DNA from: Candidatus Fraserbacteria bacterium
Lineage (GTDB): Bacteria; Bipolaricaulota; Bipolaricaulia; RBG-16-55-9
Assembly (NCBI GenBank): GCA_037442925.1
Contig: JBBIPG010000027.1
Span: forward strand, 1-28,713
Length of the DNA stretch: 28,713 nucleotides
Direction: 5' to 3'
Shown here piece by piece: positions 5,665 to 28,713 of this stretch. The notes under the pieces are model-generated. The model was not told where the DNA came from, made no database searches, and was given only the letters and a program-made list of their open reading frames with translations. Within the stretch, counting starts at the first letter, position 1, and every line of letters begins with the position of its first letter. The position numbers were made by a program, and so were the translations under genes.

Positions 5665-6084
5665 TCACATGTGATAGAGCATCCAGTAGACCAGCCAACC
5701 CGTGACGGCCACATAAAGCCAGAGAGGCAGAGTGAGACGAGCAATCTTCTTGTGATTCGCAAAGTCGCTTCTCAAGGCGCGACGTAGCGTGATGATCACC
5801 AAAGGAACAATGGCAATGGCCAAAAGCATGTGAGAGAAGAGCACCGCAAAGTACACCAGACGGATCGTGCCCTGCCCCTCAAAGGGTTTAGAACCCAATA
5901 GCGCCCAGCGCAGGACGTAGAAGATCAAGAACAGCGCGGCAAAAATAGTAGCCGTGATCATGCTGCGCTTGTGCCATGAGATCTTTTTCTGCTTGATGAA
6001 GATGAACCCCAGGACAAGACAGAAGCCACTTGTCAGAATGAACGCCGCATCGAGAGTAGGTAAGATCTCATGAAGTGACATCAC
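5665..6084 (-). CDS. DUF420 family membrane protein (oxidase assembly-associated)
   Basis: Four TMs with HKRSM, ALFLIFY, SHMLLA, HKKIARLTLPLWLYVAVTGWLVYWMLY. Last gene of the cox operon. Confidence 0.9.
   Translation of the reverse strand: MMSLHEILPTLDAAFILTSGFCLVLGFIFIKQKKISWHKRSMITATIFAALFLIFYVLRWALLGSKPFEGQGTIRLVYFAVLFSHMLLAIAIVPLVIITLRRALRSDFANHKKIARLTLPLWLYVAVTGWLVYWMLYHM
5670..5697. repeat. Right copy of the 28-bp direct repeat, inside the DUF420 3' end
   Basis: TGTGATAGAGCATCCAGTAGACCAGCCA encodes WLVYWMLYH on the minus strand. Confidence 0.9.
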
Positions 6085-6968
6085 TAGCCACGGCCGTCAA
6101 CGAGCATAAGCATCGAAAGCACTGCCAGATACAGCGTAGAGTAAAGGAAGAGCGACCGCGTGAGGCGATCCCGTTGTGGGCTGACAAGCACGAGGACCGC
6201 TAAAGCCACAAAGCCCAATCCCAGAATCGAAGCGACCACCAGATAACCCCATCCCACGACACCCAAGGGATAGAGCATGAGCGAAACGGGCAACAGCACG
6301 ACAGCATAGAGCAGGATCTGACGATATGTCATGTCCGGCCCGTGGATGACGGGCAATATGGGAAACCCTGCCCTACGGTATTCGTCTATTCGCAAGAGCC
6401 CAAGAGCCCAAAAATGTGGTGGCTGCCACAAGAAGAGAATGGCAAAGAGCACAATGGCTCCCGGCTCGATCTGGTTCGTAACAGCAGTCCAGCCGATCAC
6501 GGGAGGGAGCGCGCCCGCAACTCCACCCACTACAGTGCATAGAGGTGTCATCCTCTTGAGCCAAGCCGTGTAGATCCCCACGTAAAAGAGAATTGCCAGG
6601 AGCGCCAGCAGTGCACTCAAGAGATCGACGAAAATGGCCAGCATCACGAAGGAAATCAGGCCTAGAGACCCCCCGAAGACCAACGCTTCCGAAGGTCGTA
6701 GGCGTCCGGAGGGAAGCGGTCGCTGCCGCGTTCGCTCCATGACAGCATCCAGATCGCGGTCAATGAAATTATTCAGAACAGCAGCCGAAGCAGAGGCCAT
6801 CCCTGTACCCAGAAGCGTAAAGAAGACCAACTCAAACGAGGGGACGCCGCGAGCGCCCAGCCAGAGTCCGGCCAGAGTCGTGACCAGCACAAGAAACGTG
6901 ATGCGCGGTTTCGTGAGGTTTACATAATCTGCCAGAACTTGACGAAGCGGAAGCGCTTGAGCTTGCAT
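6084..6968 (-). CDS. ctaB: Protoheme IX farnesyltransferase (heme O synthase)
   Basis: LTKPRI, NNFIDRDLDAVMERTRQRPLPSG, YTAWLKR, WQPPHFWAL. Start at ATG 6968 (TGATG overlap with ctaA, AGGAGG RBS). Confidence 0.95.
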   Translation of the reverse strand: MQAQALPLRQVLADYVNLTKPRITFLVLVTTLAGLWLGARGVPSFELVFFTLLGTGMASASAAVLNNFIDRDLDAVMERTRQRPLPSGRLRPSEALVFGGSLGLISFVMLAIFVDLLSALLALLAILFYVGIYTAWLKRMTPLCTVVGGVAGALPPVIGWTAVTNQIEPGAIVLFAILFLWQPPHFWALGLLRIDEYRRAGFPILPVIHGPDMTYRQILLYAVVLLPVSLMLYPLGVVGWGYLVVASILGLGFVALAVLVLVSPQRDRLTRSLFLYSTLYLAVLSMLMLVDGRG

Positions 6969-7867
6969 CAGAGAGCAGCCTCCTGTGCAGCAGCCGTTGG
7001 TATACGCGCCCATAAAGCCATGCGCGTTCCCAGGAAAACGAGCGTCCCAAGCAAGATGAGAGCCACTCCCAGATGGGCGGTCGTCGCATGGGTAGATAGC
7101 AAGGTGGCAACGGAGAGCATGCCAAGCCCGATCTGAACGAGGACAGCAACCATCGCTGTCAAAGCGGCTTTCCGTAGCGTTGGGTCTTGAGTGGCGCGCA
7201 GCGTCCGACTGCCTGCTACATGAACGAAGCCCAGTACGACCAAAGCGCCCACTCGATGCAGCAGTTGGATCAGGACGGGACCTTTATGGGGAAGCCCCAG
7301 ACACAAGAATATATCGGGACAGGCAAGCCCGGCTCCACTGTGGCGGACATACGCTCCTAACACCATCTGCGCGAAGGTGACCCCGGCCGCCAGCCAGATG
7401 AGTATCTGCGGGTTTTTGGCTGTGAAAGCTTCTGATGATCCCCCTCTGTGGAACGCAAGGGTGCTCATCGCGATCAAGACAGCAAAGAGCGCCGTACCCA
7501 CAGCCAAGTGAGTTGTAGAGACTTCTTGGGGTAGTTCCAGGCGCACTGTCATTGCACCTAGGATCACCTGCGCCAAGAGTAGCAGAACGGCGATTCCTCC
7601 CAAAGCCGACATGGGTGGAATGCTGGGTGCCTGTCTCCCAGCGACGATAGTCGCCAAGAGTACGAGTATCCCCGTGAGTCCCGCGATCAAACGATGAAAC
7701 CACTCGATGAATACAGCGGGTTCACTGAACGACGGGATGAGTTGCCCACGGCAAAGAGGCCAATCGGGTCCACAACCTAGGCCGGAGCCCGTGCTGCTCA
7801 CAATGCTCCCCAGAAGGAGTAGCAAGTAGACGGAAATCGCCGAGCCGAGCACAAGAGGTTTCAGCAT
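6968..7867 (-). CDS. ctaA: Heme A synthase (COX15/CtaA)
   Basis: GLGCGPDWPLC, EWFHRLIAG, second GLAC...C loop, QLLHR, TAHL. Eight TMs. Confidence 0.92.
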   Translation of the reverse strand: MLKPLVLGSAISVYLLLLLGSIVSSTGSGLGCGPDWPLCRGQLIPSFSEPAVFIEWFHRLIAGLTGILVLLATIVAGRQAPSIPPMSALGGIAVLLLLAQVILGAMTVRLELPQEVSTTHLAVGTALFAVLIAMSTLAFHRGGSSEAFTAKNPQILIWLAAGVTFAQMVLGAYVRHSGAGLACPDIFLCLGLPHKGPVLIQLLHRVGALVVLGFVHVAGSRTLRATQDPTLRKAALTAMVAVLVQIGLGMLSVATLLSTHATTAHLGVALILLGTLVFLGTRMALWARIPTAAAQEAAL

Positions 7868-7868
7868 C

Positions 7869-8531
7869 TCAGTTCTCCGTGGTGAGACTCTTGATATACT
7901 CGATGATGGCCTGGATCTCTTCGTCGCTGAGGAAGGTAAAGGGAGGCATCACAGGCGAGAAACCTTTCACGATCTTGGCAGCAGGGTTCACAATTGACTC
8001 TTTCAAATATGCCTCGTCGGCGATCACCGCCGCGCCGCCTTCCAGCTCGCGTGTACTTCCGTACAGCCCCTTCCAGCTAGGGCCGACGAGTCTGTTGCCC
8101 GTGCTCGAGTGGCAGCTCAAACAGCCGTTGCTCTGCGCCAGCTGCTTTCCCAGCTCGACAAGATTACCCGATTGCGCGCTAGGCGTTTCTCTCACAGGTT
8201 GTTGAGACACTTCTGCAGCATACTCCGTCTGCCGAACACCCAGGACATACTTGCCTTCGCTGAGAGCGAAGATCACGAGCGCCAGCAGCAACGTCACCGG
8301 CAGCACGATGGCGTAGACAAGACTGGGTCGTTCCCAGCGCATCTGCATGAAGTACCGCACTCCTAAAGTAGCCTGAAGGAGGGCGATGGCCGTAAAGAGA
8401 AATCGCCGAAGCCACAAAGGCTCGATCTCTAAGAGGAAGATCGCATAGGAAAGAGTGACGAGGGCAACAACGATGCCCCACACCCTGAGATATGTACCGA
8501 TCGGCAAGTTCTTCTCGTCGTTGTTGTTCAT
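7869..8531 (-). CDS. Cytochrome c oxidase subunit IV-like 3-TM domain fused to a C-terminal cytochrome c
   Basis: N-terminal YLRVWG...YFMQMRWERPSLVYAIVLP (subunit IV FMHxxWE-like), then CLSCH, GPSWKGLYG, ADEAYLKESIVNP, VMPPF. Start at ATG 8531 after AGGGG. Confidence 0.85.
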   Translation of the reverse strand: MNNNDEKNLPIGTYLRVWGIVVALVTLSYAIFLLEIEPLWLRRFLFTAIALLQATLGVRYFMQMRWERPSLVYAIVLPVTLLLALVIFALSEGKYVLGVRQTEYAAEVSQQPVRETPSAQSGNLVELGKQLAQSNGCLSCHSSTGNRLVGPSWKGLYGSTRELEGGAAVIADEAYLKESIVNPAAKIVKGFSPVMPPFTFLSDEEIQAIIEYIKSLTTEN

Positions 8532-8545
8532 GCGATTTCCCCTTG

Positions 8546-9217
8546 CTAGAACAGATAGAAGAACGGGAACAGGAAGACCCACACGAGGTCCACAAAGCCC
8601 CAGTAGAGCCCGACGAGTTCTACACCCAGATAATCCCCCTTCTTGTCATAGACACCGCGAGCGATGCGTAGAGCCACGATGGCGAGAAGAAGAACTCCAA
8701 TGCTTACGTGAAGGCCATGGAAGCCAGTGAGCGTGAAGAAGGAAGCTCCGAACTGCGGTGCGCCCCATGGGTTGGACCACGGCCGGGCACCCTCGCGGAT
8801 CAAGTTCGTCCACTCCACGCCCTGCAAACTGACAAAGAGCGCTCCCAGTAGTGCCGTAAGCGCCGTAAACAGTGCCGCCTTCGCACGATCATGTCGAAGC
8901 CCATAGAGCACGGCAAGGGCCATCGTGCCTCCGCTGCTTAGGAGAATGAGCGTCATAAGAGCCACAAGGAGAAGTGGAATTTCAGCCCCGCCGATAGGCA
9001 AGGCAAAGACTTCGCCCGCGTTCGGCCACGGCGCCGCAGCGGCAAGCCGAGCCGATGCATACGCCGATAAGAAACTTCCGAAGACAAAGGCGTCTCCCAG
9101 AATGAAGATCCACATCATGGCTTTGCTCCAGCGGACCTGGAAGGCCCGGCGGTCCGAGGCCCAGTCCGCAAAGAACGCTCGAAGCGGAGTGATCCGCTCC
9201 GGCTGCTCGTGATGCAT
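8546..9217 (-). CDS. Cytochrome c oxidase subunit III family protein (CoxP-like)
   Basis: KAMMWIFILGD, FFTLTGFHGLHV, ELVGLYWGFVDLVWVFLFPFFYL. Confidence 0.9.
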   Translation of the reverse strand: MHHEQPERITPLRAFFADWASDRRAFQVRWSKAMMWIFILGDAFVFGSFLSAYASARLAAAAPWPNAGEVFALPIGGAEIPLLLVALMTLILLSSGGTMALAVLYGLRHDRAKAALFTALTALLGALFVSLQGVEWTNLIREGARPWSNPWGAPQFGASFFTLTGFHGLHVSIGVLLLAIVALRIARGVYDKKGDYLGVELVGLYWGFVDLVWVFLFPFFYLF

Positions 9218-9234
9218 CTCGTTCTTCCCTCCCC

Positions 9235-9891
9235 TTATGAGATCTCAAACCAAAGGACGCCGAAAACCACAAGCCAGATCAGCATAAGAAAATGCCAGTA
9301 GATGGCGCACAACTCGATGCGCAGATGTATCATAGATGTAGCGTTCTTGTGCCAGATCAGCGTGGCTGTTGTCCAGCCCCAGGCTACCATGCCCCCCAGA
9401 ACATGCATGCCATGGAGCGCCGTAAGCAGATAGAAGAAGCTACTGGCCGCGTTGGTGGCCAAGAAGTATCCCGCGAGACTCATCTGCTGCCAGGCCATGA
9501 TCTGTCCAGAAAGAAATAGAACAGTCAAGACTCCCGCTGTGACCAACAAGAAGCGCATCGTCAAAGGATCTCTGCGACGAGAGGACCGGCGTGCCCACTC
9601 CCACACGCCGCTGCTTATCATAAGCAGACTGGTGTTCAGCCAGAGGATCCCCGGCAAGGGCAGCGAGCGCCAGTCGGGTCCTCCCCTACGGACCGTATAG
9701 GCGCTCAGCAGCATCAAGAACACGACCGTGGCCGTAGCCAAAAAGAGCCAGAGCGCGATCTTGCCCGCGGGCAGCGAAGATCCCCATCCTCCGCCGCCTC
9801 GGAAGCCATCTCCCCAGCTTCCGTCTCCGTCGTTGCCCGTAAGAACGACGCCCGCTTCTTCTCTAGGCATTGTTCGTAGCTTGAGTGTCAT
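9235..9891 (-). CDS. Cytochrome c oxidase subunit III family protein (CoxO-like)
   Basis: LWLFLAT, LWLNTSLLMISS, FFYLLTALHGMHVLGG, YWHFLMLIW. ATGA-coupled to subunit I. Confidence 0.9.
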   Translation of the reverse strand: MTLKLRTMPREEAGVVLTGNDGDGSWGDGFRGGGGWGSSLPAGKIALWLFLATATVVFLMLLSAYTVRRGGPDWRSLPLPGILWLNTSLLMISSGVWEWARRSSRRRDPLTMRFLLVTAGVLTVLFLSGQIMAWQQMSLAGYFLATNAASSFFYLLTALHGMHVLGGMVAWGWTTATLIWHKNATSMIHLRIELCAIYWHFLMLIWLVVFGVLWFEIS

Positions 9892-11639
9892 CGCTTTGCT
9901 CCGGCTCTGGCAGGGACGCCGTCTACCGTCTGTGGGATGTAGTCTTCGTCAGCACCAGGGACGCTGTAATCGTAGGCCCAGCGATAGACTATCGGCTCGT
10001 TGGGTCCCCAGTTGCCGTGGGGTGGCGGGGTCGTGGGCGTCTGCCACTCCAAGGTCGTGGCCTGCCATGGGTTCGCAGAAGCCTTCTTACCCTTGATCGC
10101 ACTCCATATCAGATTGAAAGCAAAGACGAGTTGAGCTGCACCCACCACCAGCGCAACCACGGTCATGAAGGCGTTTAGCCCGTTGAGAGAAGGGGGCAAT
10201 GTGTCAATGCCACTGAAGGAGTAGTAGCGGCGTGGCACACCCGAAAAGCCGAGCCAGTACATGGGGAAGAAGATCAAATAGGCGCCGATGAAGGTGACCC
10301 AGAAGTGGATCTTCCCCATGGCTTCACTCATCATCCGCCCGCAAGCCTTTGGAAACCAATAGTAGATCCCGGCGAAAATGCCGAAGATGGCCGAGACCCC
10401 CATCACGAGATGAAAATGCCCCACGACGAAGTAGGTATCTGTCAGGGGCACGTCCACGACGATGTTACCCAAGAAGAGTCCGGTCAGTCCTCCTGCGACG
10501 AAAGTGCTGACGAAGCCGATCGCGTAGAGCATGGCGGTCGAGAAGTGCAGATTGCCTTTCCAGAGAGTCAGCAGCCAGTTGTACGTCTTAACAGCCGAGG
10601 GAATGGCGATGGCCAGCGTAGCCACCGCGAACCAGTAACCGAAGTAAGGGTTCATGCCGCTGACGAACATGTGATGGGCCCAGACGACGAAGCTGATCCC
10701 ACCAATGGCCAGAATGGAGAGAATCATGGCTTTGTAGCCGAAGATGGGTTTGCGGGCGCGGTTGGCGATGATGTCCGAGACGATGCCCATCGCCGGCAGA
10801 ATCACGATGTAGACTTCCGGATGCCCGAAGTACCAGAAGAGATGCTGGAAGAGAATGGGGTTCCCTCCCTCATGGCCGATCTGCCTCCCGAAGAGATTGA
10901 CCACGGGGATGAAGAAACTCGTGCCAGCCATGTTATCGAGCAGAAGCATGACGCCACCCACAAAGAGCGCCGGGAAAGCCAGTAGAGCCAGCGCCGCAGC
11001 CACAAAAATACCCCACACGGAGAGGGGCATGCGCATCAGGGTCATGCCCTTCGCACGCGCTTGTAGCACTGTCGTCACGTAGTTCAGACCTCCCATGGTG
11101 GCCGATGCGACGAAGACAGCCAGCGAGATGAGCATGAAGCGGATGCCCCACTCCGCACCCGGCGAGGCTCCCGGCAGAGCCGATTGCGGCGGGTAGAGAG
11201 TCCAGCCGGCTCCGGTCGCATCCCACAAGCCGACAAACAGCAAGATCACCGAGATGAGATACGTCCAATAGCTCAGCATGTTCAAGAAGGGGAAGGCCAT
11301 ATCCCGAGCCCCGATCATGAGTGGGATGAGGTAGTTACCGAACCCACCCAGAAGCAGCGCCGTCAGCAAGTACACGACCATGATCATGCCATGCTGGGTG
11401 ACAAACTGTAGATAGTTCTCCGGCTGAATGAACGAGAACTGTCCGGGGAAGCCCAGCTGCAAGCGGATCAACCAGGAGAAGACCATGCCTACACCCCCGA
11501 CCAGCAGCGCCGTGATCGTATACTGCAGGGCGATTACTTTATGATCCTGACTGAAGATGTATTTGCTCCAAAGACTCGTCGGCTCGTGATGGCCCGTGTG
11601 TTCCACATGAACCTCGTGTCCTGAGGCCGGTTGCGCCAT
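9888..11639 (-). CDS. ctaD: Cytochrome c oxidase subunit I, type A1
   Basis: HGMIM, GHPEVY (A1 glutamate and cross-linked Tyr), WAHH, HFH, PRRY, D-channel GARDMAFP, K-channel PSAVK. Start at ATG 11639 after GAGGGG. Confidence 0.97.
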   Translation of the reverse strand: MAQPASGHEVHVEHTGHHEPTSLWSKYIFSQDHKVIALQYTITALLVGGVGMVFSWLIRLQLGFPGQFSFIQPENYLQFVTQHGMIMVVYLLTALLLGGFGNYLIPLMIGARDMAFPFLNMLSYWTYLISVILLFVGLWDATGAGWTLYPPQSALPGASPGAEWGIRFMLISLAVFVASATMGGLNYVTTVLQARAKGMTLMRMPLSVWGIFVAAALALLAFPALFVGGVMLLLDNMAGTSFFIPVVNLFGRQIGHEGGNPILFQHLFWYFGHPEVYIVILPAMGIVSDIIANRARKPIFGYKAMILSILAIGGISFVVWAHHMFVSGMNPYFGYWFAVATLAIAIPSAVKTYNWLLTLWKGNLHFSTAMLYAIGFVSTFVAGGLTGLFLGNIVVDVPLTDTYFVVGHFHLVMGVSAIFGIFAGIYYWFPKACGRMMSEAMGKIHFWVTFIGAYLIFFPMYWLGFSGVPRRYYSFSGIDTLPPSLNGLNAFMTVVALVVGAAQLVFAFNLIWSAIKGKKASANPWQATTLEWQTPTTPPPHGNWGPNEPIVYRWAYDYSVPGADEDYIPQTVDGVPARAGAKR

Positions 11640-11664
11640 GCTACGTTTCCCCCTCACTTCGTAC

Positions 11665-12480
11665 TTACTTCATTGTGGCGCCCATCGTCTGGCTGACGGT
11701 GGGCTGCTCAGTGAGCCATTTCTGGAATTCTGTTTCACTCTCGACAATCAAGTGGCCCTGCATATTGAAATGACCGATGCCGCAGAGCTCTGCACAGAGA
11801 ACTTCAAAGGTGCCCGTCTCCGTGGGGGTAACCCAGAGGCGGGTCACCAAGCCCGGCACGGTATCCATCTTGATGCGGAACTGGGGCACATAGAAGCTGT
11901 GAAGGACGTCCTTGGAGCGCAGCTCCAGTAGCACAGGTTTCCCAACCGGCAGATGGAGCTGACCGCCAGGCGAGATCAACACATCGTCTTGGCTGGCTGG
12001 ATCTGCGAGATCCATTCCAAATGGGTTCTCGGCACTGATGAGCTTTGGGTTCGCGCCGCCCAGCTTCCCATCCTGGCCGGGATAACGGTAGCTCCACATC
12101 CATTGCTGGCTGAGGACCTCTACTACCAACGCATCCTGGGGTGGCCGGATGAAGTTGGAGTAGACGAAAAGACCCGGAGCAACCAGTATGACAATGCCGA
12201 TGCCGGTGAGGACGATGAGCCATTTCTCCAGTCTGTGATGCTCGGGCAAGAACGTGGCTTTCATTCCTTGGCGACTACGATAGCGCCAGAGAAAGTAAGC
12301 TAGAGCCACATTCACGCCGATGAACGCTACTCCGGTCACGATGAGCGTGATGATGAGCATCGTGTCCAAGGCGCCCCAGTTCGAAGCCAGAGGAGGCAGC
12401 CACCAGATCCCGCTTACGGTCACCACCACGGCTACAACCACGAACAGAATAGAAACAATTGCCAGAGCAATCCCCTGCAT
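11665..12480 (-). CDS. ctaC: Cytochrome c oxidase subunit II (CuA, no fused cytochrome c)
   Basis: QQWMWSYRYP, DVLHSF, CAELCGIGHFNM CuA motif. Ends shortly after the cupredoxin domain. Start placed at ATG 12480. Confidence 0.95.
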   Translation of the reverse strand: MQGIALAIVSILFVVVAVVVTVSGIWWLPPLASNWGALDTMLIITLIVTGVAFIGVNVALAYFLWRYRSRQGMKATFLPEHHRLEKWLIVLTGIGIVILVAPGLFVYSNFIRPPQDALVVEVLSQQWMWSYRYPGQDGKLGGANPKLISAENPFGMDLADPASQDDVLISPGGQLHLPVGKPVLLELRSKDVLHSFYVPQFRIKMDTVPGLVTRLWVTPTETGTFEVLCAELCGIGHFNMQGHLIVESETEFQKWLTEQPTVSQTMGATMK

Positions 12481-12490
12481 AATGGTCGCA

Positions 12491-12519
12491 ATTTTATAAC
12501 AGGGCGCCGCCTGCCGCAA
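12491..12519 (-). promoter_or_regulatory. Putative cox operon promoter
   Basis: TTGCGG, 17 bp, TAAAAT, 10 nt upstream of ATG 12480. No SD sequence. Confidence 0.5.
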
Positions 12520-14042: not shown

Positions 14043-15071
14043 ATGGCAGAACTGCCCATTCCTTCACACTTCGACCCAAATCGAATCGGCCAAGTCTGGA
14101 GGGTGCCTTATCAGCAACGTGCGGAAGAAGCCCGTCGGTGGGCGAACGAGTACAAAATACGTCCGGCGGCCGAGGATCGATTCAAGATCTGCCTTGTAGC
14201 TGTGGACGTACAGAACACATTCTGCATCCCTGATTTTGAATTGTATGTGGCTGGGCGCTCGGGTACGGCGGCCATGGACGATAACCGTCGATTGTGTGAG
14301 TTCATCTATCGCAATCTGGGAGTGATCACTCAGATTGCTCCTACCATGGATACGCACCAAGCGATGCAGATCTTCCATTCCATCTTTCTCATCAACGAAA
14401 AGGGCGCGCATCCGACGCCTTATACTCTCATATCTTACGAAGATATTGAGAAGGGTCGCTGGAAGTTCAACCCAGCTATGGCAAAGAGCCTCGATCTTGA
14501 TGCCACGTATGGTCAACGCCATCTTCAGCACTACACGCGTGCTCTTACATCTCGTGGGAAATATGATCTAACCATCTGGCCTTACCACGCGATGTTGGGC
14601 GGAATTGGCCATGCTTTGGTCTCATCTGTGGAGGAGGCTATCTTCTTCCACTCGATTGCTCGCTACAGCCAGCCGGATTTTCAGATCAAGGGGAATCATC
14701 CCCTGACGGAGCATTATTCCGTCTTGGGCCCAGAGGTCTTGGAAGGCCCGGACGGCAGGCCCATCGCACAGAAGAATGACGCTTTCATTCAGAAGTTGCT
14801 CTCTTTTGATGCCGTGATCGTTGCTGGGCAAGCGAAGAGCCACTGCGTGGCCTGGACTATTGACGATCTCCTAGAAGGCGTTCGAGCTCGCGATGAGCGC
14901 CTGGCCAAGAAAGTCTATCTCTTGGAAGACTGTACCTCGCCTGTCGTCGTACCTGGCGTTGTGGACTATACCGAGCAGGCCGAGACAGCTTTCCAAAGAT
15001 TTGCAGACGCGGGAATGCACGTAGTCCGCTCTATAGATCCCCTAGAACGTTGGCCCGGGATCCACCTATAA
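14043..15071 (+). CDS. Isochorismatase/nicotinamidase-like cysteine hydrolase (long form)
   Basis: [25 protein letters not shown] (catalytic Cys), LEDCTS. Confidence 0.8.
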
Positions 15072-24826: not shown

Positions 24827-26149
24827 TTAGGGATTCTTGATGAAGTCGGGAGGCCAGGGGTAGTCTGAGGGACAGAGGTCGCCTTTATCATTATTTGATA
24901 ACTCGTTTCCTGAACCTCGGATCTGTCCCTCAAAGTGGCCAAACATCAGCGCTTCCTGAGGGGCACACTCAGAGGTCAAAAGTGCAATGCCTCTTCCGTT
25001 CAACATAATTCTGTTCCCTGTGATTTCCACGTCCATGTAATTCCATCCTAGTTCGATACCCAGCTCCTCATTACGCTCGACCAAGTTGTTCGTAATTCGG
25101 GCCGCTCCGGTAATTCCCACGTAGATTCCTTTCTGATTCAATGAGACAAGATTATCCTCGATCCTCACATTCAAAGTGTCATCATCGACTCGCCAATCGA
25201 TGACATTCAGACCAATGCCATTGTCTCGCAAAACATTGCCTCGGATTCTGACACTGATGTCTGCGATGGTAACTCCCGGAGAGTGCTTCGACCCGAGAAT
25301 CTCATTTCTCTCGATGATCACAGTACCCTTCTCATCATCCGGATGTAATCGCTGAATAAATATTCCCCCTCGATCATGGACAATGAGATTCCCTTTGATT
25401 AGGAGCCCTCGACTGCCTAGCGCATAGACTCCCTCAAGGTGCATGCCTGTGATCAAATTGTTGGAGATCGTGGCTTGAGCGTTCATCAGAGAGACGCCTA
25501 TAGCCGGATCACCGTGGCTTTGCAAGAGGATGACATTGTCCTTGATCTCGGCGTGTGCATAACTTACACCAATCCCATAGTGGCTTTCCGAGAACGGCAG
25601 GGTCAGGTAAATCTTATTGCTGTCGATAACAGCTTGGGCTTCCTCGGCAACTTCGATGGCTCCTTGATAATGCCGGAAGGAATTGTTGCGCAGGGTAACT
25701 CTGGCTCTGTCCTGAATGAGAATTCCGAGAACGACAACACCTTCAGGCGACGACTGCCATGACTTCCCCGGCGTGGTCGAAGCGACACCCGCTCCGACCT
25801 CCGCTTGAAACCGGATCCCTTCGATATGAACCTGGATGGAACCTCTGACGAGGACCCCGGGTTTGATAGGGGAGCTTATGATTGTGACGGCCCCGGCAGT
25901 GGATGCTTTGAGCACTAAACTCTTGTTAATTTCCAAGTTCTCACTGTAGATACCGGCATCAACTTGAATGGTATCTCCCTCGCTAGCCTCGTCAATAGCA
26001 GCTTGGATGCTAGTGAAGTCCTGAGGTACCAAAAGCTGTCGAGCCATGTTGAGTCCAGAGTTCATGCTGGCATCACCCGAGCTTAGGAAAAGCAGGGGTA
26101 GGATTGCAAGTATTAGGGATCTGGTCCACCCAGCAACGGTGTCAAACAT
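24827..26149 (-). CDS. Secreted right-handed parallel beta-helix (NosD/pectin-lyase-like) protein
   Basis: Signal-like N-terminus, VPQDFTSIQAAIDEASEGDTIQVDAGIYSENL cap, many IxxNxI/GI repeats. Start uncertain (26149 preferred over TTG 26206). Confidence 0.8.
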   Translation of the reverse strand: MFDTVAGWTRSLILAILPLLFLSSGDASMNSGLNMARQLLVPQDFTSIQAAIDEASEGDTIQVDAGIYSENLEINKSLVLKASTAGAVTIISSPIKPGVLVRGSIQVHIEGIRFQAEVGAGVASTTPGKSWQSSPEGVVVLGILIQDRARVTLRNNSFRHYQGAIEVAEEAQAVIDSNKIYLTLPFSESHYGIGVSYAHAEIKDNVILLQSHGDPAIGVSLMNAQATISNNLITGMHLEGVYALGSRGLLIKGNLIVHDRGGIFIQRLHPDDEKGTVIIERNEILGSKHSPGVTIADISVRIRGNVLRDNGIGLNVIDWRVDDDTLNVRIEDNLVSLNQKGIYVGITGAARITNNLVERNEELGIELGWNYMDVEITGNRIMLNGRGIALLTSECAPQEALMFGHFEGQIRGSGNELSNNDKGDLCPSDYPWPPDFIKNP

Positions 26150-26217
26150 GTGGTCACTCTTGAAGATCTCAACTGGTTGATATTGTAGCTTTCCCCGTCT
26201 CAGCAAAGCTCAAGCTC

Positions 26218-28500
26218 CTATTGCGCACAGAGCTTTAAGGTCTTAGTCCGCAGTCCCTCTTCGCTACAAGCTGTAGAGGAAATGACTACGCCAGGAAGTC
26301 CAGAGGTGAGCGAATCAGAGCTTGGTGGAGGCGCGATATCTGCTGCTGGACTTGCACAAAAGCTAAAAGCGAAGATGGCACAGGCAATCTGCTGAGCTTG
26401 TGCAACTCCTGTAGGATCCTGTGTGTTAGTTGCGAAAGCGAATTGGGCTGAGGGAGTGCCGCAATTGGCTACACAATACACCACTACAACGACTATACCG
26501 TTGCGAGCGGCTTTGTCTGCCGACTGGTTTGCTAGTCTCTGAGCAGCAGCAGCATTGGTTAGGCCATCCATGATCATCACGACCGAGTATGTGTCTGCGG
26601 CAATCTCCTTGGTATTCTTGATGACACTGGCCGCCTCAATGTATCGATCGATTTGTCGGGCATAGTCTATGAATTGCTGACTGCGCTCCGGCGAGATGAC
26701 TCCACTGGTTGGCCCAGACTTAACCTCAATGAAGGCAGCGACTTTGCCGAGCCCGGGGATTTCTTTGGTTCCTACGACATCTATAACTGTTGATCCTCCG
26801 CTGAAGCCCGGTAATACTCCCTGTTGCCAGGTTTTGGGCATTGAGAAATCGACTAGGGTCCACCCACGCAACACCATTTCACTCGCAACTGTCAATTCCC
26901 CCAATAGGCTATTGAACTCGAGTGGATTTGTAAGAATCTGATCTAATCTTCCGATGAAGTGCGCGACTGCGTCACTATTGGTACAGATAGCGAAGAGCAC
27001 TGCTTCTGCACGAGCTGTGAATAGAGCTGCGACTTCAGGATTTTGTACAATCACAGGTATAAGTGCAACAGCTGCTATCCTTGCCTGAGCCTGAAACACC
27101 AAGTCGGGTGGTGTATCACCGCAGGGCGCAATGGGAACCGCCTCTGCCGATAGTTGGCTGCCCTGCGTGCTTCTGGCAGTCTCGATGCGCGCAGCTTTAA
27201 CGAGGACAGCTTGAGCATCTCGGAGGAGCTCTTCGATTTGCCACTTCTCCAACGCTCCTAGACCGGAAGCTAAGACATTTGCCCCTTCACCTCTGGCAAA
27301 TATAGCAGGAGGCGTGCTCATTTCTTGATAAATGGCACTGGAAGCAGTTGACGCAATCTCTCGAGATCTGGCCGCTATTCTCCCGCTTTTCCATTCTTTC
27401 TGATACCACAGCTCCCAGGAGTTCTGGCACATGACTTTGCTCAGCGCAGTCACCGGCCCACTGTAGCCATACGGACAGTAGTCGAACACCGGCTTGATGG
27501 CAGTCCCCAGCTGCACTGGAGGAGCTGGCGGTGGAGGCGGACTCGGCGGAGCTGGCTTGGGTGCTGGCAACTTCGGCGGGGTTGGAGTCGGCTTGGGCAC
27601 TGGCTTGATCACCGGCAGCTGCGACACAGGAGTCGGCAATATCTGCCACTTCCCACTTCCTCCACTCTCAGTGCTGACCCGCTGCACCTTCACGGCCGTG
27701 TGCACAGCTCGATCCAGATCGAAGCTCATCCCGCCCGGCAGCAGCGTCTGCCCTGTGCTGGAAGACATCTCTGGTACGACCACCAACGCCGTGGCTTCTT
27801 CCTGGTCGGCATCAAGAATGACCACTTGGGCCTGGGACCAGTCCAGCTCCTGGGCGCGCACACCCTGCGATCCTGCAGTCATGCTCAGCAGCGGCTGCAC
27901 CTGCGAGGCGATCTCTTGTGTACCTGCATCATCCGGCAGGAAGAGATCCACGCCCACGGGCTCCTCAGGGCTAGCCCCATCAACCTCCAGCCCCACCTCC
28001 AGCTGAGTGAGCCATTGGCCTCCCTCGTCCGCTCCCACAAAGGCAGCCCAGCTGTTGCTCTCTTGAGCGGGCTCGTTCTCCAGAAGATATAGCGCGGCAT
28101 CACTGCCCGCAGGGACTTCGATGAGGGTGACCTCTGTTGCGGTCTCCTGCTGAGCGCTGAGTCCTTGTCCTTTGGCCTTGCCCTTCACCTGGCAGCCGTG
28201 GGCTCTACTCAAGACCAGCTTCTTGCCCCGGCGTTCGAGAGCCTGCTTGAGTAATTGGATCTCCGGTTTGTCCTTGAGGGCTTTCTCCACCAGTTTCTTG
28301 GCTTGGCCAGGAGCCAGATCCTTCACACAGTCGGGAGGTCCACCTTGTCCTTGGGCGGCAACCAGCCACGAACTGGAAGAACTCTCGATTATAGATGTAT
28401 CGTCATTGACGGTGTTGCGCGGCAGGAAGAGAGAACATCCTGTGAGAAATCCTAAAAGCAATACGATGCCGAGCAACCCACCCCTGCGTACCCCTAGCAT
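26218..28500 (-). CDS. Large lipoprotein with Pro-rich linker and C-terminal PD-(D/E)xK nuclease-like domain
   Basis: Lipobox FLTG-C after a hydrophobic signal, PVPKPTPTPPKLPAPKPAPPSPPPPP linker, and LGE...RGW...IDVVG...FIEVKSG...QxxRY. AAGGAGGG RBS. Confidence 0.7.
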   Translation of the reverse strand: MLGVRRGGLLGIVLLLGFLTGCSLFLPRNTVNDDTSIIESSSSSWLVAAQGQGGPPDCVKDLAPGQAKKLVEKALKDKPEIQLLKQALERRGKKLVLSRAHGCQVKGKAKGQGLSAQQETATEVTLIEVPAGSDAALYLLENEPAQESNSWAAFVGADEGGQWLTQLEVGLEVDGASPEEPVGVDLFLPDDAGTQEIASQVQPLLSMTAGSQGVRAQELDWSQAQVVILDADQEEATALVVVPEMSSSTGQTLLPGGMSFDLDRAVHTAVKVQRVSTESGGSGKWQILPTPVSQLPVIKPVPKPTPTPPKLPAPKPAPPSPPPPPAPPVQLGTAIKPVFDYCPYGYSGPVTALSKVMCQNSWELWYQKEWKSGRIAARSREIASTASSAIYQEMSTPPAIFARGEGANVLASGLGALEKWQIEELLRDAQAVLVKAARIETARSTQGSQLSAEAVPIAPCGDTPPDLVFQAQARIAAVALIPVIVQNPEVAALFTARAEAVLFAICTNSDAVAHFIGRLDQILTNPLEFNSLLGELTVASEMVLRGWTLVDFSMPKTWQQGVLPGFSGGSTVIDVVGTKEIPGLGKVAAFIEVKSGPTSGVISPERSQQFIDYARQIDRYIEAASVIKNTKEIAADTYSVVMIMDGLTNAAAAQRLANQSADKAARNGIVVVVVYCVANCGTPSAQFAFATNTQDPTGVAQAQQIACAIFAFSFCASPAADIAPPPSSDSLTSGLPGVVISSTACSEEGLRTKTLKLCAQ

Positions 28501-28572
28501 ACGCGTCCCTCCTTAGAGCGTAGGCCCGTGGTTTTGCGTCTCCAGCCTTCGCTGGGTTTGCCGTTTTCGGGT
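28482..28572 (-). ncRNA. Cyclic di-GMP-I (GEMM) riboswitch-like aptamer
   Basis: Minus strand CCGAAAAC-GGCAAAC-CCAGC-GAAG-GCTGG-A-GACGCAAAACC-ACGGGCCTAC...GTATG-CTAGGGGTAC matches the hallmark GGCAAAC/GACGCAAA motifs. The 3' half and tetraloop deviate from consensus. Confidence 0.72.
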
Positions 28573-28588
28573 CCTTCACCCAACACTC

Positions 28589-28713
28589 TAAGTAGGTCGT
28601 CGAATGTTTTTTGAAGGAAGAGAGGCTGCGGTGCTAAGCTGGGGCCAGGAGGAATTCACCTATGAAACCGCTTTGCCTCACCCCCGCTCAGCGCTCCCAC
28701 CTGGAGGTTCTCA
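28589..28713 (+). mobile_element. Probable left end of an IS630-like element with transposase N-terminus (truncated by window end)
   Basis: TA followed by AGTAGGTCGTCG. AGGAGG RBS, ATG 28662, MKPLCLTPAQRSHLEVL resembles the LTxxQRxxLExL start of IS630-type transposases. Only 17 codons are visible. Confidence 0.4.

Follow-up and report, generated by a model that had tools for sequence, protein, structure and literature searches.

What the 760-aa predicted lipoprotein and the beta-helix protein encoded directly after it do together is the question raised by the window, a stretch of 28,713 nt assigned to Candidatus Fraserbacteria, whose source genome (G000) belongs to the Bipolaricaulota and is 94% complete. 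Gene A (26218..28500, (-); product P0001), recognised from its open reading frame and sequence, joins a constant N-terminal half to a swappable C-terminal half, and gene B (24827..26206, (-); product P0002, 459 aa), recognised from its reading frame and a PF13229 match, follows in the same orientation 11 nt downstream in the list of open reading frames, as the initial annotation had described. That annotation had also seen a lower-GC block right after glmS. The pair is convergent with glmS rather than co-oriented, and the low GC content holds for the variable half of gene A (52%) and the beta-helix gene (50%) but not for the constant half (61%, compared with 56% on average for the genome), which rules out a low-GC island spanning the whole pair. 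Its observation that the block has no small cytoplasmic immunity gene is borne out by the open reading frames. It is clear that the gene pair is real and part of a larger system, as 13 copies of gene A occur in the genome, the copy in the window being referred to here as C27.

The gene A product starts with a lipoprotein signal peptide evident from the sequence (28435..28500, (-)), and the cysteine of its lipobox, LTG-C22, is kept in 12 of the 13 rows of alignment A2, the remaining row being truncated at the end of a contig; two Lgt genes are present in the genome. The constant region that follows (aa 22-329; 27514..28437, (-)), delimited by DNA identity to the paralogue C26, by profile relatives and by a structural model, is closed by a Pro-rich hinge (approximately aa 288-329; 27514..27639, (-)), and both the lipobox and the Pro-rich stalk of the 760-aa reading frame had been correctly noted before. 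This constant region is a new domain family with 50 representatives at E<=0.001. Gene A has no match in Pfam and none over the cut-off in NCBIfam, the N-domain gave no usable match in the Atlas, and Foldseek searches with the tip model and the N-domain model returned nothing at E<=0.001. A relationship of the N-domain to cystatins was considered and set aside as too weak: the model has a pLDDT of 69, and its best structural match, weakly cystatin-like, reaches Z 5.6, all such matches (Z<=5.6) involving model residues 35-134 only. Gene A copies resemble one another up to about residue 329 and vary over the ~430 residues that follow. Between C27 and C26, 84% DNA identity extends to gene nt 987 and is followed by 25% protein identity, between C11b and C1 98% DNA identity is followed by 30%, and C58 and G036b have cassette DNA in common (83-86%) whereas the preceding segment is only 32% identical. 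The sharpness of this border strongly supports the earlier proposal of a constant N-terminal half carrying a variable C-terminus. The first part of the variable cassette (aa 330-499; 27004..27513, (-)), by its sequence, combines a CPY..C domain with a stretch of moderate hydrophobicity; it is 19-40% identical to other copies, and the best 19-residue hydropathy, 1.93, lies at aa 467.

The ~430 C-terminal residues and the next gene are exchanged as one cassette. In all 23 loci read the downstream gene is large and has a signal-peptide-like start, and in 20 of them it is a signal-peptide beta-helix; RCC1 or PQQ-type propellers replace this partner in two loci, and in G055 the downstream position is taken by a paralogue of the tip half, complete with signal peptide. 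Co-occurrence of homologues with the beta-helix gene and the riboswitch, a check proposed at the outset, is thus found for the former in these 20 of 23 loci and often for the latter, which precedes 7 of 21 heads, and 4 of 8 heads in the source genome with its 17 switches. Headless orphan cassettes (C28b, C30b, G036b and two in G049) start inside the constant region directly after a partner gene, and a constant third gene encoding a small predicted outer-membrane barrel ends five other loci; the initial annotation had overlooked both. Stops, frameshifts or insertion disrupt several copies (C28a, C40, C30b, C14, G018), and in G049 the same N-domain bears a PKD-like plus alpha/beta-hydrolase-like tip beside small signal-peptide genes, the hydrolase-like tips being seen in G049 only and matching Pfam at E 7e-4, below the cut-off. 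The nearest partner has the matching tip class in 16 of 20 cases (shuffle mean 6.1, with 2 of 10,000 shuffles reaching 16), and the Mantel rho between tip and partner is 0.40 (n=15), 0.36 (n=18) and, within the genome, 0.60 (n=9); the N-segment has no link with the partner (rho 0.02, n=7). Neighbouring genes would be expected to covary in this way through linkage by itself as well, and the covariation is not significant in a subset of 6-7 loci of mostly different classes (rho 0.27 and -0.01). P0001 as a single query had no match in the named genomes, in which the profile search found four loci, and no earlier description of the family was found in the largely open-access literature that was searched.

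Two described systems offer parallels. SitA, encoded by the sitBAI loci of myxobacteria, shares with gene A a lipobox, a conserved N-terminal escort region, a polymorphic nuclease-type tip, a cognate gene directly downstream, the presence of several loci per genome and restriction to a single lineage, as set out in the available portions of PMC5562445 and PMC8546572. SitA requires TraAB exchange according to the same portions, and SitI1 is there a small SUKH-like immunity protein, whereas the downstream gene here encodes a 320-460-aa signal-peptide beta-helix, no sitB-like gene lies upstream and most tips are without a catalytic motif. No homology of gene A to any named family was detected in the libraries searched. 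MafB/MafI of Neisseria, in the available text of PMC4287609, comprise signal-peptide-exported, non-repeat polymorphic proteins of narrow taxonomic range, with a partner gene and headless C-terminal cassettes (mafB-CT) downstream of the full gene and with evidence of cassette swapping, and orphan cassettes are described for polymorphic toxin loci generally in the accessible part of PMC3482391. The tips of MafB are unrelated domains, and a separate protein, MafA, is the lipoprotein there (PMC4287609, same portion), whereas here the effector is itself the lipoprotein, one fold dominates the tips, the partners are predicted to be exported and a riboswitch is present at some loci. Our preferred reading, to which we assign a probability of about 45%, is that genes A and B belong to a new, lineage-restricted polymorphic toxin-immunity system of the SitA/MafB kind with an antidote outside the cytoplasm. 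The 13 copies, the sharp border, the joint travel of tip and partner and the orphan cassettes are in its favour.

The tip (aa 500-722; 26335..27003, (-)) is a predicted PD-(D/E)xK nuclease fold, as judged from its model, structural matches and a class alignment. The model (pLDDT 78) has a core of helix, three-strand meander, helix and strand, and its best structural matches are of middling Z (7.3-8.1, rmsd 3.3-5.4, 121-158 aligned residues), dehydrogenases reaching Z 7.1 against the best value of 8.1; eight of the nine top matches are what we take to be restriction-endonuclease-fold proteins. Hits to UPF0102/YraN were obtained (E 9e-4 and 2e-4), and the tip profile gave no usable match among PDB sequences and, in a search of longer proteins, recovered only three family members. 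A C-terminal REase-like motif had been noted earlier, and six residues confirm it: E535, D574, E592, K594, Q616 and Y620 are all kept in P0001 and are invariant in five of five EVK-class tips at 33-37% identity, this class having the full DNase-type signature including QxxxY. The suggested check for a nuclease fold likewise gave a C-terminus that models as a PD-(D/E)xK-type fold. Tox-REase-7 (PF15649) has the same fold and the same order of E, D, ExK and Q, its signature being given as GxxxE, IxD, ExK, Q in the available portion of PMC3482391; GxxxE occurs in four other EVK tips and the nearest Atlas clusters stand at 0.88, a lead only, whereas P0001 has SxxxE and the tips are longer, Cys-rich and without the listed immunity families. 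The Tox-REase-7 Pfam model gave no match, its genome search being run without a positive control.

Across the family, E..D..(E/Q)xK is kept in 8 of 43 non-redundant tips; the other 35 comprise 18 with an EP[YF]-type motif, 11 with an RGDHC-type motif, 5 decayed EVK relatives and 1 that is cut off before the site. One fold is found in 42 tips, and within the clade the tip looks like one fold diversifying rather than a set of unrelated toxin domains. Nuclease activity as the general job of the family is unsupported because the catalytic motif is missing in most tips. The tips are also Cys-rich, mostly with 6-14 Cys in the last 300 aa, so that folding outside the cell suits them better than import, and acidic residues outnumber basic ones in the tip of P0001 (17 K/R against 22 D/E). 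For the toxin-immunity reading, the EVK catalytic residues, the UPF0102/YraN matches, the alternative tips of G049 and the broken copies are favourable, whereas the small share of tips with the motif, the single fold, the lack of a cytoplasmic immunity gene, the Cys-rich tips, the acidic tip of P0001, the middling fold match and a covariation that linkage alone could give weigh against it.

The main rival, possible but doubtful in our estimation, holds that the tip is an exapted, disulfide-stabilised surface binding domain with B as its cognate ligand, the pairs driving self-recognition or aggregation under c-di-GMP control and the catalytic residues being ancestral leftovers or a side function. 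Absence of the catalytic motif from 35 of 43 tips, two classes of which yet keep conserved motifs of their own, is consistent with such lock-and-key recognition, as are partners built as signal-peptide repeat scaffolds (beta-helix, RCC1, PQQ propeller), the tip paralogue downstream in G055, the predicted barrel gene that ends five loci and the enrichment of riboswitches at heads (4 of 8, compared with 17 switches genome-wide). It fits poorly with the invariance of six catalytic-type residues in an EVK class at 33-37% identity, with the hydrolase-like tips that G049 carries on this N-domain and with orphan cassette arrays that match those of toxin loci. A second, improbable rival is a toxin acting on the envelope, in which the PD-(D/E)xK fold would be redirected to non-nucleic-acid phosphodiester or related envelope bonds, for instance in lipid carriers or the linkage units of wall polymers. 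The three active-site classes would then represent different specificities. If the tips act on envelope bonds, an antidote would be required precisely in the periplasm, and this rival would account jointly for the extracytoplasmic partner, the Cys-rich tips and the class-specific active-site motifs, as well as for the acidic tip and the hydrolase-like alternatives. Against it, the EVK class carries a full DNase-type signature with QxxxY, and we know of no precedent for a PD-(D/E)xK fold acting on envelope bonds. Outer-membrane tethering via SLH/CsaB is reported for relatives of the lineage, in the available part of 10.1101/2021.05.31.446380, which is in keeping with an envelope target.

Gene B encodes a right-handed beta-helix (PF13229, E 6e-22) whose start, read by eye, is signal-peptide-like, the likely true start being M20; it carries the family C-terminal motif DLCPxDYPWPPxFIKxP and falls into one group with proteins that partner other tips of the EVK class (support 96/89). 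PF13229 has 30 matches in the genome, and many lie outside the system, which rules out counting all of its beta-helices as members; the C-terminal motif is found in 11 of these proteins, one of which (C81) stands apart. The initial annotation had offered, as an alternative, a surface nuclease processing extracellular DNA or matrix together with a polysaccharide-binding beta-helix. The lipobox, the intact motif in C27, the c-di-GMP link and the weak similarity that profiles show between B and the beta-helices of alginate epimerase and pectinesterase (E 5e-6 at best) are compatible with this idea, but the invariant columns of B, again by eye, are mostly cap and ladder residues, and the 13 polymorphic copies, the orphan cassettes, the loss of the motif from most tips, the partner-tip covariation and the replacement of B by propellers are left unexplained, and we regard it as the least probable of these accounts. 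The role of polysaccharide helper is itself unsupported, because B tracks the tip class and can be replaced by propellers, as is expected of a cognate binding partner.

If genes A and B do form a toxin-immunity system, the gene A product would, after export, be fixed by a lipid anchor in the cell envelope, which is predicted to be diderm, and would reach a neighbouring cell by contact or in vesicles. The constant domain would serve as escort, the hydrophobic mid-region would help the tip to enter, and EVK-class tips such as that of P0001 would cut DNA. The likely secreted beta-helix of each pair would inhibit its own tip by binding it outside the cytoplasm, and cells with the same cassette would intercept an incoming tip in the envelope by means of the cognate B. 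Recombination in the constant region would swap tip and partner together, and c-di-GMP would tie some copies to lifestyle. T6SS VipA, secretin, LolA, VKOR and OmpA were not found in the 94% complete genome; traAB was addressed indirectly, through the missing OmpA domain and a MYXO-CTERM search that had no positive control.

The locus brings to light, in a barely studied, deep-branching phylum, a family of N-terminal domains that was not described before and a system that swaps cassettes, and it breaks the usual pairing of a nuclease-tipped polymorphic protein with a small cytoplasmic antidote, a cytoplasmic immunity gene being the rule for known nuclease toxins in the available text of PMC5562445. 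If the beta-helix neutralises the tip, envelope interception would be a new mode of immunity, and if most tips are non-catalytic binders, a nuclease fold would be turning into a recognition code. A broader proposal, which we put forward tentatively, is a new envelope lock-and-key system in which an exported, disulfide-locked restriction-enzyme fold has diversified into catalytic as well as non-catalytic alleles, every allele being paired with a secreted beta-helix of its own, cassette-shuffled and wired to c-di-GMP, forming a combinatorial self/non-self code wholly outside the cytoplasm that operates by recognition or by envelope chemistry new for the fold. As the genome offers a matrix of cognate and non-cognate pairs, the toxin and recognition readings are testable in E. 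coli.

The leader of C27 had been described as a GEMM-I-like RNA gating the operon. The RNA is recognisable, with an Rfam c-di-GMP-I match (RF01051; 28469-28572, (-)) of 37.3 bits against a gathering cut-off of 35, the lowest score among the 17 matches in the genome, but the aptamer is not intact. Paralogue leaders identify a riboswitch remnant (28490..28572, (-)) in which the aptamer 5' half is joined to the ribosome-binding site at 28519/28518, the aptamer 3' strand and 110-200 nt of leader being deleted relative to C26, C40 and C58. The 5' half (GGCAAA, the P1 hairpin, GACGCAAA, CCAC..GGGCCTAC) is almost identical to that of the intact switches of paralogues, whereas the native 3' strand and leader are missing, the loop reads GAAG in place of GAAA, and the SD and start codon lie inside the predicted P2. 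No complete P2 that has the native 3' strand and a GNRA loop is present; a substitute P2 folds at -16.5 kcal/mol, and in this predicted structure P2 has possibly been rebuilt around the SD and start codon. An assembly artefact as the cause of the deletion is made less credible by a 360-nt contig of run X1, which may be the source sample, that crosses the junction with no differences; a second X1 contig departs from the window after 28594 into other sequence. Runs X3-X6, which had small shares, were left out of the habitat reading, and none of the runs listed with the sequence was an RNA run. Alignment to paralogue leaders places a -10-like box of the family promoter, TAGAGT, at 28585..28590 (-), and the -35 box, TTGACA at that place in the paralogues, is lost. 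Four nt upstream of the -10-like box lies the end of an IS630-type insertion sequence (28595..28713, (+)), inserted at TA (28593-28594) and identified by its 88% identity to G007:C1, where the corresponding sequence forms the beginning of a transposase (HTH + DDE_3). With the aptamer 3' half and leader deleted and the IS630 end replacing the -35 box, switch and promoter are damaged or rewired and riboswitch gating is doubtful for this copy. Because an IS630 has entered its promoter and part of its switch is deleted, the copy may be weakly expressed or may have escaped regulation. The C27 leader may record a riboswitch rebuilt after deletion.

The source genome G000 (2.07 Mb, 94% complete) carries on contig C27, the window, a pair of reverse-strand genes oriented tail-to-tail with glmS: gene A (26218-28500, 760 aa), whose product has the lipobox LTG-C22 and a proline-rich hinge, and gene B (24827-26206, 459 aa), a beta-helix protein. 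Both reading frames described in the initial annotation are borne out, with signal peptides called by eye here as everywhere in the analysis. The lower-GC block that it described is confined to the remainder of A (52%) and to B (50%), whereas the first 330 codons of A, at 61%, stand above the genome value of 56%. Elsewhere the window holds an ordinary cytochrome c oxidase cluster (5665-12519) that includes two COX3-like genes and, at 7869-8582, a fusion of COX4 to cytochrome c; two frames, of 370 aa (1824-2936) and 342 aa (14043-15071), match no Pfam family.

Gene A is one of 13 lipoprotein copies in G000, located by tblastn and three profile searches on contigs C1, C9, C11 (two), C14, C26, C27, C28 (two), C30 (two), C40 and C58. 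It is very probable that these copies form a cassette system, in which a constant head is joined to a variable C-terminal half, which ends in the tip and travels with a partner gene. Over the first 987 nt of the gene the C27 and C26 copies share 84% DNA identity, which is lost beyond, and in the following domain the two proteins share 25% identity; for C11b and C1, identity falls from 98% before the equivalent point to 30% after it. In the converse case, C58 and a copy in the relative G036 (G036b) have cassettes 83-86% alike in DNA, preceded by a segment only 32% alike. The proline-rich hinge type occurs with all three tip classes, and headless cassettes that start inside the constant region lie directly after a partner gene in C28, C30 and G036, and twice in the relative G049. 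Some copies are broken, by a single in-frame stop (C28a, C40), by frame breaks (C30b, and G018 among the relatives) or by truncation (C14, where the sequence after the cut is presumably the start of an IS5-like element); the breaks could in part be assembly errors. No description of the family was found in the literature searched, whose coverage of subscription journals and of large studies' supplements was limited; supplements of large comparative studies could list such proteins.

Of 184 genomes from the phylum, Bipolaricaulota, nine have profile matches to the N-terminal domain, all inside one order of 35 genomes. Against 1.84 billion proteins the domain finds fifty representatives; 18 of the fifty were inspected at full length, those above 500 aa entering the tip alignment. 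The domain matched no named family in any domain library searched, and its predicted structure (pLDDT 69) bears a weak likeness to cystatin. Four members of about 1,200 aa (P0045, P0047, P0048 and P0049) carry extra domains between constant region and cassette, one of which, in P0048, is a PKD domain. In gene A and its paralogues the domain borders repeatedly show short (Q/E)G(L/V)x(A/T)Q-like motifs, and most copies end with a C-x(4-14)-C pair; both may be processing or sorting signals.

The gene after a nuclease-fold tip encodes a beta-helix protein in 20 of the 23 loci where it is readable (10/12 in G000, 10/11 in relatives, the latter assigned by sequence likeness and not by Pfam scan); no partner could be read for C14, L060 and L080. 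In the three exceptions its place is taken by a protein of RCC1 repeats, by a PQQ-type propeller and, at L062:4243-5433 in G055, by a paralogue of the C-terminal half of the lipoprotein itself, with a signal peptide. The five G049 copies neighbour small genes for signal-peptide proteins, most of which lie on the other strand. The nearest partner accompanies the same tip class in 16 of 20 cases (6.1 by shuffling), and the partners of four tips of the EVK class, to which A belongs, form one supported clade. Mantel tests give a correlation between partner and tip (rho 0.40, n=15; 0.36, n=18; 0.60 within G000, n=9). Since related loci are not independent and neighbouring genes covary by adjacency alone, these sequence statistics show a travelling cassette and not binding. 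In a subset of 6-7 loci that covered the N-segment too, the partner's correlation was significant neither for the N-segment (rho 0.02) nor for the tip (0.27, -0.01).

A model of the tip of A (aa 504-722, pLDDT 78) gave no Foldseek match at E<=0.001. A wide structural search placed first Upx, XisH, FokI, Can2, N.BspD6I, AF1548, Card1, VC1899 and BsmI (Z 8.1-7.3, values near 8 being middling by the tool's own warning), followed by a dehydrogenase at Z 7.1; eight of the nine we take to be restriction-endonuclease folds. The sequence pattern is the stronger support for the tip's putative identity: five tips that share only 33-37% identity with it all keep E535, D574, E592, K594, Q616 and Y620, and UPF0102/YraN models match members of this class weakly. 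Because of these residues, the weak model matches and the structural matches, A is likely a nuclease. From 49 non-redundant sequences, six were left out (two with hydrolase tips, four whose tip is incomplete), and the 43 aligned were classed by eye: E..D..(E/Q)xK in 8, an EP[YF]-type motif in 18, an RGDHC-type motif in 11, decayed relatives of the first class in five, and one that breaks off ahead of the site. Many tips of the other classes are still detected by a profile built on the first. The tips of the family would mostly not be nucleases. In G049 the N-domain is joined to a PKD-like domain and to a tip resembling alpha/beta-hydrolases (a GxSxG seen by eye, and a Pfam match at E 7e-4, under the cut-off); such fusions stand in tandem with orphan copies at L064, L066 and L067, each adjoining small Gly-rich, hydrophobic, Trp-terminated signal-peptide genes without a Pfam match.

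One explanation of these tips is a recognition or adhesion system, which is consistent with the lack of catalytic residues in most of them, with their many cysteines and with the predicted export of the partners; we regard it as a strong, though less probable, rival of the toxin-immunity reading given below. The genomic grammar is that of polymorphic toxins, whose loci likewise join a constant head to a variable tip, place the cognate gene downstream and carry orphan cassettes (PMC3482391, PMC4287609). The nearest functional analogue is the SitA lipoprotein toxin (PMC5562445, PMC8546572). By the tests run, the A/B system belongs to none of SitA, MafB and Tox-REase-7. The shared grammar and this analogue, together with the Omp85 and Lgt genes of G000 and a lineage reported as diderm (10.1101/2021.05.31.446380), favour a toxin-immunity system, at a probability of roughly 0.45, in which B would intercept its tip outside the cytoplasm as immunity to A. 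An envelope-directed enzyme at the tip is unlikely, and one alternative of the initial reading, that A simply cuts extracellular DNA while B helps it by binding sugar, ranks slightly lower still.

A third, constant gene encodes a 151-aa predicted outer-membrane barrel, a call made by eye on alternating residues and on a Phe at the terminus. It is 83-89% identical among copies and is the last gene of five G000 loci; at a contig end a sixth copy stands behind the tail of a beta-helix, and the gene is absent at the window's locus. It is found at L087:1723-2178, L024:2049-2504, L089:1416-1871 and L069:5317-5745, without a Pfam or NCBIfam match. It is multi-copy in 5 of the order's 35 genomes, and G126 carries it although the lipoprotein profile matched nothing there.

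Against 17 c-di-GMP-I matches, G000 has a single GGDEF match; many of the 17 stand before proteins with signal-peptide-like or lipoprotein-like starts. Such riboswitch matches precede four of eight family heads in G000 (C26, C27, C40, C58) and three of 13 in relatives, all three in G049. Searches for c-di-GMP riboswitches with polymorphic toxins, and for Acetothermia with c-di-GMP, gave no match in literature mostly without subscription journals. The GEMM-I-like RNA reported directly before gene A is present as the lowest-scoring of the 17, but relative to paralogue leaders it is without the 3' strand and 110-200 nt of leader (junction 28519/28518, loop GAAG). A contig of sequencing run X1, which may be the source sample, crosses this deletion junction unchanged. 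The joined region folds as a P2-like stem of -16.5 kcal/mol with the SD enclosed and the AUG paired (p about 0.94); native stems reach -13.5 and -16.5, analogous deletions built from three paralogues -8; among random variants with 12 changes, about 2% attain -16.5. The leader is probably a dead remnant; that it is a working, rebuilt translational switch, as the folding might suggest, is a tentative alternative. SD and AUG also appear inside P2 in C65 and C18. An SD-like run in the P2 loop, with an AUG in its 3' strand opening a reading frame, occurs in several G000 aptamers (C65:1391-1474, with a 497-aa frame; C8:594-676; C36:11731-11818; C18:25946-26033), and the C18 aptamer, also without the usual 3' strand, is a second half-switch. 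Upstream, an IS630 end (28595-28713) stands in place of the paralogues' TTGACA box, and at 28594 two contigs of X1 (depth 12 and 85) extend from one TA, one into the IS630 end and the other into different sequence.
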